This document shows positions 15,001 to 18,000 of a stretch of DNA of 64,000 nucleotides, piece by piece (the first letter of the stretch is position 1; each line of letters starts with the position of its first letter). The position numbers were made by a program. The stretch is from Escherichia coli (lineage in GTDB: Bacteria > Pseudomonadota > Gammaproteobacteria > Enterobacterales > Enterobacteriaceae): the NCBI RefSeq assembly GCF_003991155.1, contig NZ_CP031293.1. One strand, 5' to 3'.

Positions 15001-18000
15001 GGAAACGATGGTAATTCGCGAGTCATCCTCCATCCATGCCAGCGATGTCACGCTTTCCATGTGACAATGTTGAATAACGGGAGTCTGATAGTGCCCCTGA
15101 ACCTGGTAGTCGGCGGCATCGATTGTTTGTTGGACATTGCCCGTCGACATAGTGCTTTGTTTTAGTAAATTGCCGCCGTTATGGATTGGTTCAGCGTCAT
15201 CAGCCAGCGCCGCTTCTGGGGTGGTGATAACGGGTAATTCTTGCCACTCAATGCTGACCAATTGCGCCGCTTTTTCTGCCGTGAGTTCATCACGAGCCAC
15301 GACGATGGCAACGGCGTCACCATGGTGACGAACATGGCGAGTTAGCAGTGCGCGATCGGCGGTATCGCGCTTGTTTTCGTCAAGTGTCCAGGCATGCCCA
15401 GCTGTAGCGAATGGGATATCAGGCACATCTTCCCAGGTAAAAATCGCCAGTACGCCCGGTAAACTTCTGGCTTGTTCATCATTAATACTTACGGCATAAC
15501 CATGTGCGATAGGGCTACGTACATATTTCGCGTAACACATGCCCGCCATAACATAATCGTCAGTATATCGTGCCCGCCCGGTGACCTTAGCAATGGCATC
15601 TACGCGCATGCATGATTCACCTGTAGCGGTTGCTTCCCGCGCTTCCATAGAAATCCCCTCGATTTGAACATTTGGTTCTTATGGCAAAGATTTAGTCTAA
15701 GCAGGCAAGATTTACGCCAGAAACGACGATAAGCGTTAAGGGAGGAAGGAAGTGTGATGATGTTAAAAAAACACAGATATGATACGAAACAGGACCCTGA
15801 ATAGGGGCAGTGATACGTATCAATATGAGTGGCGATAAAATCAATGTGATAAATTGGGATTATTACGCATCAGGATGGGAAATAGGGTAAATGAGTCAGG
15901 AAATTCGATACATCTACAGTGAATATTTTGCTGATGATACTTCCCTTTGCCAAATGAAATTAACCTCTTTCTCTATTACCGCGTTTTTCCAGAAGCAAGA
16001 GATTGGGTATCAAGAGGCTGGCTGCTATGATATGGCGTCTTGTTTTTTAAGCGAGGAAAGATTTTGAGTGCGGGACGCCTGAATAAAAAATCTCTGGGTA
16101 TCGTGATGTTGTTATCGGTTGGACTGCTTTTGGCGGGCTGCTCGGGTAGCAAATCATCCGATACAGGAACGTATTCCGGCTCCGTTTACACCGTGAAACG
16201 GGGGGATACGCTATATCGTATTTCGCGCACCACGGGAACCAGCGTAAAAGAGCTGGCGCGACTGAACGGCATTTCCCCCCCTTACACCATTGAAGTTGGT
16301 CAGAAACTAAAACTGGGTGGGGCGAAAAGTAGCAGTACACGTAAATCAACCGCCAAATCAACGACCAAAACCGCATCGGTTACACCGTCATCAGCAGTAC
16401 CGAAATCTTCCTGGCCGCCAGTAGGGCAACGTTGTTGGTTATGGCCAACGACAGGGAAAGTTATCATGCCGTATTCGACAGCTGATGGCGGCAATAAAGG
16501 GATTGATATCTCAGCTCCACGGGGTACACCTATTTACGCCGCGGGTGCAGGAAAGGTGGTGTATGTGGGCAACCAGCTGCGTGGCTACGGTAATCTCATC
16601 ATGATTAAACACAGTGAAGATTACATTACGGCTTACGCTCATAATGACACGATGCTGGTAAATAATGGGCAAAGCGTGAAGGCTGGGCAAAAAATCGCCA
16701 CTATGGGGAGCACTGATGCGGCATCTGTTCGCCTGCATTTCCAGATTCGTTACCGTGCAACGGCAATTGATCCGCTACGTTACTTGCCGCCTCAGGGCAG
16801 CAAGCCAAAATGCTGATGGCGAATTAATCAGCAGTCAGCAGCGCGGCACTTGCTAAGGAGAGCGTAAGGTTTATAATGCCTTACGCATCTCGAAGCGGGC
16901 GTAGTTCAATGGTAGAACGAGAGCTTCCCAAGCTCTATACGAGGGTTCGATTCCCTTCGCCCGCTCCAATTTATCTTCACCTCATCAACCTGCCATTTTT
17001 GCTGTATCTGATTTTCTATATTATCTTAATTCAATCGCTTCAGTCTTTTCGCAATCGCCGTAATACTTCCTCATTTTTTTTGTAAATAAAAGCGTTTACG
17101 CAATGCAATCGTCATGTATCTTAAATAGTCTTATTTAAGATGTTCAGAACTCTTTGTGTGTTTAACTAGCTGATAATTATATAATATTACGAGAGAAGTG
17201 ATAGGGCGGAATAATAACAAATGAACATTATGAAAACTGGGATGGTTCAAAATTGAAGCAATTTTGAACCATCCACAACGGATATTAGCTAAAGAACATT
17301 ACCGATACGCACAGGATACCCACGATCAGCGTAATCAGATTTCCGATGGAACGCCAGGGTTTAAGCGCTGGGATGAGATACGTTGACAGCGTAGGCATGA
17401 TGAAAAGTATCATGGCAATGAGCGGGCCGCTGATCGCGTAAATCATCGAAATCGCGTTCGGGTTAATGCAACAAACAATGAAGGTAATCAGCGATACCAA
17501 CATAATTGATAGTGCGCGGTTAAATGCACGACTTTTCTTTACACCAACCTGCTGTAATGTTGTTTTGACGACCTCTGTGGCACCTTCAATAACGCCAAAG
17601 TACGTACCCAGGAATGATTTCGACATCGCAACTACTGCGACAATAATCCCGGAAATTGACAACCATGCTGGGGCGTTCGGCAGCATAGAAAGCGCCGATA
17701 AAATGGTAACCCCTTCTTCTTTAGCCGCTTCAATATACGAAGGTGGAATAGAAAGCAGGCAGCTAAAGACAAAGAACAATACACTTATGCAGATGATGAG
17801 ATAAGCGACTTTCATAATTTTTTTGCATTTATCCATAGCATGTTCGCCATATTTTTCACGTCTGTCTATGGCAAACGTAGAAATAATGGGCGTATGGCTA
17901 AAAGCGAAAACCATCACGGGAATCGATATCCATATCTGGTGAAGGGTATTCTGATTGAACTCTACCTGGGTTGTTAATAGATCAGGTTGCCAACTACCGA

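Follow-up and report, generated by a model that had tools for sequence, protein, structure and literature searches.

What does it mean that glyU and yqeG lie side by side in this stretch of Escherichia coli DNA, and was the site between them ever occupied by the ETT2 island? That E. coli strains differ in whether they carry ETT2 at glyU has long been known, and the absence of the island from phylogroup B2 has been published. In the window, by which we mean the whole 64-kb stretch that was analysed, the tRNA gene and yqeG are convergent neighbours separated by a spacer of exactly 316 bp (16969-17284). A first-pass annotation had described glyU as followed directly by yqeG across about 316 bp of AT-rich DNA and had called the site unoccupied. 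Its coordinates and description proved exact, and the G+C content of the spacer is 32.0% as against 49.9% for the whole window. The word ‘unoccupied’ is correct as a description. It does not establish ‘never occupied’, a stronger statement that is in doubt because the outgroup evidence, set out below, leans towards an old loss.

The tRNA gene, glyU, encodes a tRNA-Gly with anticodon CCC and occupies 16895-16968 on the plus strand (ARAGORN; Rfam tRNA model, 71.6 bits). A sigma-70-like promoter match, TTGCTA-16-TATAAT, found on the same strand at 16850-16877 by a consensus scan (10/12 positions), ends 17 bp 5' of glyU and probably serves it. The conserved gene bordering the locus on this side is actS (ygeR; 16064-16816, plus strand), a LysM/M23 amidase activator recognised from its annotation in a 100%-identical genome, 2016C-3878, and from the Pfam domains LysM and Peptidase_M23. 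On the opposite side of the spacer lies yqeG (17285-18514, minus strand), which encodes a putative amino acid permease of 409 aa (annotation in 100%-identical genomes; Pfam Trp_Tyr_perm). Divergent from it is yqeF, a thiolase (acetyl-CoA C-acetyltransferase) gene at 18769-19950 on the plus strand (annotation; Pfam Thiolase_N and Thiolase_C). Genomes that are 100% identical to the window over 16000-19000 are annotated with the gene order xdhA, actS (ygeR), tRNA-Gly, yqeG, yqeF, kduI. As YqeG homologs with 79-92% protein identity are kept in most other Enterobacteriaceae genera sampled, yqeG is core DNA and lies outside ETT2.

How does this arrangement compare with that of occupied genomes? The yqeG-glyU interval of K-12 MG1655 measures 11.9 kb and contains yqeH, yqeI, yqeJ, yqeK and ygeF-ygeQ together with an IS2. 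The first-pass annotation was therefore right to place a degenerate ETT2 between the two genes in K-12, and the possibility that K-12 likewise lacks intervening genes at this point can be dismissed. In O157:H7 Sakai the interval extends over 27,836 bp (ECs3703-ECs3737) and includes the eiv, epa and epr type III secretion genes, a gene content described in PMC3977695. When the whole Sakai interval was compared with the 64-kb window by blastn and tblastx, two short flanks were matched and nothing else, and a tblastn search of the window with 26 Sakai ETT2 proteins found no homolog. The type III secretion apparatus genes located between yqeG and glyU (eivA/C/E/F/G, epaO-S and eprH-K) are absent from the window. 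Likewise, no matches in the window were obtained for the yqeH-yqeI-yqeJ-yqeK-ygeF-ygeG-ygeH module beside yqeG; this regulator/chaperone module, yqeH-ygeH, adjoins yqeG even in degenerate ETT2 alleles. Alignment of the locus to K-12 and to ETT2-positive and ETT2-negative genomes, which had been suggested as a check, was carried out: the junction is shared with the negative genomes, and K-12 and Sakai align with the spacer through the two island flanks.

The spacer is made up of the two flanks of the island. With Sakai as the reference, the 316 bp correspond to 150 bp after glyU plus 174 bp after yqeG minus an overlap of 8 bp, and there is no extra DNA. The glyU-side flank (16969-17118, 150 bp) is 92% identical to the 150 bp with which the Sakai yqeG-glyU interval ends; in ETT2-bearing strains, this is the DNA that separates glyU from the island. 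In K-12, 74 bp of this flank close to glyU are missing (between window 16981 and 17056), with TC(A/G)CC microhomology at the edges. On the yqeG side, window 17284-17111 aligns at 91% identity with the first 174 bp past the Sakai yqeG stop codon, and K-12 is also collinear here. The part of this yqeG 3' trailer that extends beyond the overlap, as delimited by alignment to Sakai and K-12, comprises 166 bp (17119-17284), and the yqeG-side flank diverges from that of K-12 by 7.8%. The overlap, GTCATGTA at 17111-17118, aligns to both island-bearing flanks and constitutes the junction, that is, the point of ETT2 insertion or deletion. Its counterparts in island-bearing strains read TTTTGTA on the glyU side and TTATGCA on the yqeG side. 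The 8-bp overlap was also considered as a target-site duplication, a candidate that we rejected as too short and imperfect. What is seen directly is an ETT2-free glyU-yqeG allele that consists only of the two trailers, sharing 8 bp. The empty-site allele proposed at first pass is borne out to this extent: the 316 bp are collinear with both island flanks in Sakai and in K-12, and hold nothing else.

Does the spacer contain functional elements of its own? A hairpin resembling an intrinsic terminator of yqeG was detected at 17230-17274 on the minus strand by a terminator scan and folding, with its stem at 17240-17274 and a short U-tract at 17230-17239. The stem begins 10 nt past the stop codon and consists of 16 bp closed by a 3-nt loop, followed by the tail CAGUUUUCAU, whose U-tract is short, with 4 consecutive U. 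The predicted folding energy is -23.5 kcal/mol (z = -6.25), and 0/200 shuffled sequences fold as well. The stem is kept in 8 aligned Escherichia sequences, E. albertii included, and compensatory changes are found at 2 stem pairs: pair 19-51 is AU in 4, GC in 3 and GU in 1, whereas pair 32-38 is UA in 5 and AU in 2. The hairpin is very probably the intrinsic terminator of yqeG; the strong hairpin reported at first pass is confirmed as a conserved structure, with its terminator role as a prediction. Elsewhere in the spacer, an Rfam scan at E<=1 returned no family beyond the tRNA, no ORF is longer than 69 aa and none has coding character, and the glyU-proximal half yields no stable fold (z = +1.26). 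On the Rfam, ORF and folding results, an sRNA or small gene hidden in the spacer was rejected. The recognisable functional elements are the yqeG hairpin, the only one within the spacer, and, just upstream of it, the probable glyU promoter and the tRNA gene.

How ordinary is such an allele among sequenced strains? Of 5,426 complete E. coli genomes, 1,217 match a 171-bp junction probe without interruption, and 1,251 do so with a 3-kb probe. Among the split genomes that were sampled, all except one break at positions 82-89 of the 171-bp probe, equivalent to window 17111-17118. Sequence from the Sakai island was detected in 4,142/5,426 genomes, with at least 80% of the island present in 944. As 1,217 and 4,142 add up to 5,359, fewer than the 5,426 genomes searched, the junction and ETT2 classes need not overlap. 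The island-free allele, found in about a fifth of sequenced strains, is already well known and ordinary. The window-type subtype of the junction, at 99% identity or above, is present in only 43/5,426 genomes.

A trivial explanation would be that ETT2 lies elsewhere in the genome, or that the assembly collapsed at the junction. A combined probe, made of window 15500-19000 and 400-bp pieces of yqeH, ygeH and eivA, found a single matching place in 60/60 of the complete genomes that match best, the majority of which are identical to the window. No ETT2 probe match elsewhere and no second glyU, actS or yqeG was found in these 60 genomes, so that the scenario envisaged at first pass, ETT2 beside a second glyU copy, was not encountered in any of them. 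The sequence across the junction recurs with 100% identity in dozens of complete genomes that were assembled independently, each with one probe match, which speaks against an assembly artefact. Relocation is opposed by the finding that ETT2 DNA is never plasmid-borne and occupies at most 2 places per genome. We regard either form of this explanation as next to impossible.

To which lineage does the window belong? Its divergence from K-12 is 1-3% in nearly all 1-kb bins, and it carries 6.6 kb beside metV that are missing from K-12. Over 49,957 bp it is 99.998% identical to MRY15-117, a strain of ST457 (PMC5430464), and ST457 falls in phylogroup F (PMC9780897). Phylogroup A was considered as well, as the near-identical LWY24 was published as ST93, and PCR typing elsewhere had assigned that sequence type to group A (PMC8025056, PMC4130637). 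This assignment was rejected because the window is uniformly 1-3% off K-12 and identical to ST457 genomes. Judged by its sequence, the window is ST457-like, phylogroup F, and is to be placed on the B2/G/F side of E. coli. The earlier argument that the empty site, together with the metV islet, points to a non-K-12 lineage agrees with the divergence, the metV segment and the ST457 match alike.

The allele is not confined to this lineage. Strain SF-468 is ST95 (PMC9780897), and 20Ec-P-124, also designated MRY16-002, is ST117 (PMC5430464). The 316-bp allele is common to SF-468 (ST95), MRY15-117 (ST457) and 20Ec-P-124 (ST117), and spacer length and junction are the same in SF-468 and GPEC1035. We take ST95 to be a B2 lineage and ST117 to belong to phylogroup G. 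Some 9 substitutions or indels distinguish the window-type from the B2-type spacer, and most of them fall in the glyU-proximal half. In that half of the window spacer, the differences from the B2 type resemble the state in ETT2-bearing strains.

These comparisons bear on the idea that the window's ST457-like lineage underwent a recent deletion private to itself. Deletions within ETT2 are frequent, and so few genomes share the exact junction type at 99% identity or above (the 43 mentioned) that such an event might seem plausible. The same junction and the same 316-bp length in ST95 (B2) and others effectively refute it. Furthermore, the flanks of the empty and occupied alleles are 8-12% diverged at the junction, as against 1-4% for neighbouring genes and spacers, and a recent deletion would not give flanks so distant from those of the occupied alleles. 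We consider a private, recent event very improbable.

If the event is old, was ETT2 lost from the B2/G/F branch or did it never arrive there? YqeG loci from 80 species were compared as outgroups, and the yqeG-glyU distance across these loci ranges from 0.9 kb to over 10 kb. Outside Escherichia, nucleotide homology ends at the yqeG stop codon, so that only Escherichia genomes, a handful in number, are informative on the ancestral spacer. The type strain of E. albertii (L084) carries a 1,341-bp remnant with both island ends; intact ETT2 has been found in most E. albertii, and acquisition of the island has been placed before the E. albertii/E. coli split (Ooka 2015, PMC4700944). Two divergent Escherichia genomes also show island genes at this position: yqeH-yqeI-yqeJ-ygeH follow yqeG in one (L006), and in the other (L007) yqeH follows yqeG before the contig ends. 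E. fergusonii has unrelated cargo after glyU and then a gene with a YqeJ_C domain. Escherichia sp. MOD1-EC7003 (L005), whose actS and yqeG are ~96% identical to those of E. coli, has a different empty allele of 286 bp, without 76 bp of the E. coli glyU flank. This allele keeps 47-56 bp of the E. coli yqeG-proximal island end at 96-97% identity, and its type was found in no complete E. coli genome. In some Citrobacter, yqeH (78% protein identity) is located ~1.9 kb downstream of yqeG. On the evidence of these neighbourhoods, all other Escherichia lineages sampled are, or were, occupied at the locus, in agreement with PMC4700944.

We propose that the empty allele goes back to a single, ancient event in which the branch leading to B2/G/F cleanly lost ETT2, a reading that we favour on balance. 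The three alleles aligned, from the B2, F and G lineages, do not differ at the junction by a single base. A shared continuous junction argues for one historical event, which would have spread by descent and recombination, and not for repeated events. As the sampled relatives all are, or were, occupied, parsimony would make the E. coli empty allele a secondary loss. Deletional attrition of ETT2 is very common, which counts in favour of loss.

The rival to an ancient loss is a primordial site. According to this hypothesis, ETT2 never reached the B2/G/F branch; other E. coli lineages acquired the island at a later time, together with its flanks, by homologous recombination from another Escherichia. 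Such a never-occupied model was put forward by Ren et al. 2004, in the form in which it is summarised in PMC7058095. Such a site would be expected to leave a clean junction of uniform sequence, and the junction is indeed uninterrupted in 1,217 genomes and identical in the three aligned alleles. No nucleotide of island origin is left in the allele, an observation that counts against loss; the argument from missing island DNA is partly circular, as the island ends were defined against the same allele. The left breakpoint lies within ~10 bp of the start of the E. albertii/E. coli island homology, which fits a true island boundary and hence a site that was never occupied. Moreover, the yqeG-proximal island end is kept in 40/40 of the ETT2 alleles, whether partial or complete, that were drawn from across the ranking, so that an exact deletion of the whole island would be unusual. 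Divergence is raised at the junction, as a primordial site would have it: the 7.8% of the right flank falls in the top ~2% of 166-bp windows, and the distal left flank reaches ~12%. MOD1-EC7003, a clade-like genome, is also closer to the occupied-allele flank (91.6%) than to the empty allele (85.5%).

These points have to be set against what a primordial site demands. Either the empty allele would predate ETT2 in the genus, or the island would have entered repeatedly and horizontally at one site, and such repeated entry would have to cover E. albertii, E. fergusonii, the cryptic lineages and most E. coli (PMC4700944). Transfer of ETT2 from one Escherichia species to another through homologous recombination would be compatible with the outgroup pattern that is otherwise read on the side of loss. 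The island end in MOD1-EC7003 stands at species-level divergence (96-97%), which fits vertical descent of an occupied site, and outgroup distances suggest that the flank of the empty allele is partly a long branch and not an early one. Taking both sides together, we give a primordial site substantial weight that falls somewhat short of an even chance.

The divergence of the flanks suggests that empty and occupied alleles split before the phylogroups did. With flanks 8-12% diverged from those of occupied alleles, as against 1-3% for the surrounding DNA, the empty allele might be read as a haplotype of great age that arose before the E. coli phylogroups and was kept, or moved between lineages, by homologous recombination; we think this rather unlikely. 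In that case the 316-bp spacer, taken with the empty allele of MOD1-EC7003, would define where ETT2 truly begins and ends. It would likewise decide between a gain of ETT2 later than the B2/G/F branch and a loss from that branch, a question on which the literature is split: Ren 2004 (via PMC7058095) versus Ooka 2015 (PMC4700944).

What can then be read from an empty site? The allele serves mainly as a lineage marker, which tells that the window is not K-12, that it belongs on the B2/G/F side and that it is ST457-like. Added here are a base-level junction (17111-17118), continuous in 1,217 complete genomes, and a comparison across Escherichia in which ‘empty’ is not proof of ‘never occupied’, a point that bears on the published dispute over timing.

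Compared with the occupied state, the window represents the same chromosomal site as Sakai ETT2 and the K-12 remnant (yqeH-ygeQ), and has both island flanks at 91-92% identity. Relative to Sakai and K-12, it is without ~27.5 kb and ~11.7 kb of island, respectively, and has no eiv, epa, epr, yqeH-K or ygeF-Q genes. Scarred ETT2 deletion alleles, such as those of the E. albertii type strain and MOD1-EC7003 and the partial alleles of E. coli, likewise bring glyU and yqeG close together. However, these alleles keep island DNA or have lost flank, whereas the window keeps no island sequence: both island ends are retained in the 1,341 bp of the type strain, and the E. coli partial alleles retain the yqeG-proximal end.

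Classical tRNA-targeting islands share the same tRNA as a landmark. An example at glyU is found in an E. coli genome (L093) where a 4.3-kb integrase element, with an integrase gene of 542 aa, sits exactly at the glyU 3' end and has a 23-nt repeat of that end as its boundary; beyond the element come the ordinary 150-bp flank and then ETT2. ETT2 itself starts 150 bp downstream of glyU. The ends of the Sakai island show no significant direct repeat (the local alignment score was reached by 127/1000 shuffles), and any tRNA-derived repeat in that island is at most 11 nt long. In the window, the terminal 12-23 nt of glyU are present in a single copy, with no duplicated tRNA end, and a tyrosine-recombinase gene beside glyU is absent from the spacer. 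ETT2 as a classical glyU-integrated element was rejected, as its ends show neither a significant repeat nor a copy of the tRNA 3' end. Unlike the L093 arrangement, the window has no integrase, no duplicated tRNA end and no spacer ORF.

The closest known counterpart is the ETT2-negative glyU locus of B2. ETT2 has been reported absent from B2, for example from ST131 (PMC7058095), and the B2 locus (ST131, ST95; Ren et al. 2004, Fox et al. 2020, PMC7058095) has the same 316-bp spacer and the same junction. The YqeG of the ST95 strain SF-468 is a protein identical to that of the window (WP_000065950.1). Unlike the textbook B2 case, the window allele sits in an ST457-like, phylogroup F background.

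When the ETT2 island of the O157:H7 strain Sakai was used as a probe against a collection of complete E. coli genomes, a graded series of partial alleles emerged, which retain 20.1, 17.1, 9.4, 7.0, 3.1, 0.9 and 0.08 kb of the island. Every allele in the series is anchored at the yqeG-proximal island end, and attrition therefore proceeded from the glyU side or from the interior rather than from the yqeH side. A second type of empty site is found in Escherichia sp. MOD1-EC7003, where 286 bp (11231-11516 of its locus, L005) run from approximately 72 bp of glyU flank through a 47-56 bp middle piece into the yqeG flank. 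In E. coli the middle piece forms the ETT2 end nearest to yqeG. The MOD1-EC7003 junction lies at an ATCGC microhomology. An empty allele of this type was found in none of the 5,426 complete E. coli genomes searched. Microhomology, here TC(A/G)CC, also edges a smaller gap in K-12, which lacks 74 bp directly 3' of glyU (between window 16981 and 17056; ~15972-15976 in the K-12 locus, L001). This stretch is present in the window, in Sakai and in B2 strains.

The 3' end of glyU serves an island that is separate from ETT2. In one E. coli genome (L093; NCBI GCA_022630075.1) an element of ~4.3 kb (10772-15316), which carries a gene for a 542-aa tyrosine recombinase, sits exactly at this end, and a 23-nt direct repeat of that end marks its boundaries. 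Downstream of this integrase element, which uses glyU as its attachment site, come the normal 150-bp flank and ETT2.

A small structural difference from K-12 lies at window ~3529-3556, between yqeA/arcC and yqeB, where the window has nothing corresponding to approximately 150 bp of K-12 (3012426-3012579). The metV islet (56604-62116), located between amiC and metZWV, is absent from K-12. By the annotation of strain LWY24, its genes include a PRD-domain regulator, a PTS EIIC component, a MalY/PatB-type lyase, a KpsF/GutQ-like isomerase and a phosphoglycerate-dehydrogenase-like gene. Between the final islet gene and the three tRNA-Met genes the window harbors a 1,070-bp copy of ISApl1, an IS30 family element (62117-63186; transposase ORF 62176-63177, + strand), which is missing at this site in otherwise identical genomes, such as LWY24. 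Mobilization of mcr-1 is associated with this insertion sequence, and several of the window's closest strains carry mcr-1.

The assignment of LWY24 itself presents a conflict. Its published sequence type is ST93 (PMC8025056), which PCR typing assigns to group A (PMC4130637). Yet the LWY24 chromosome (L089, NZ_CP054556.1; compared with window 39001-62116 and with locus L090) is essentially identical to the window, which matches ST457 genomes of phylogroup F. LWY24 also has RecB and RecC protein accessions in common with the ST457 strain MRY15-117. Taken together, these data point to either a large shared segment or a typing discrepancy.

What does the locus hold outside E. coli? The glyU–yqeG interval is a general insertion hotspot. 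Its length in other Enterobacteriaceae is 0.9-8.8 kb or exceeds 10 kb. In E. fergusonii GCA_017528185.1 (L091) ~9.8 kb of non-ETT2 cargo lies downstream of actS–glyU (within 10838-20759), encoding an amidohydrolase, a cytosine/purine permease, a DUF4434 protein, an NfrA-like TPR protein and a glycosyltransferase, and is followed by a YqeJ_C-domain gene. In Citrobacter sedlakii and C. amalonaticus (loci L008, L010, L011 and L014) yqeH homologs with 78% protein identity are situated ~1.9 kb downstream of yqeG, and C. sedlakii additionally possesses yqeI/yqeJ-like genes. Given these yqeH homologs 3' of yqeG in Citrobacter, the regulator module that adjoins yqeG in ETT2 may predate the type III secretion core or be separable from it.
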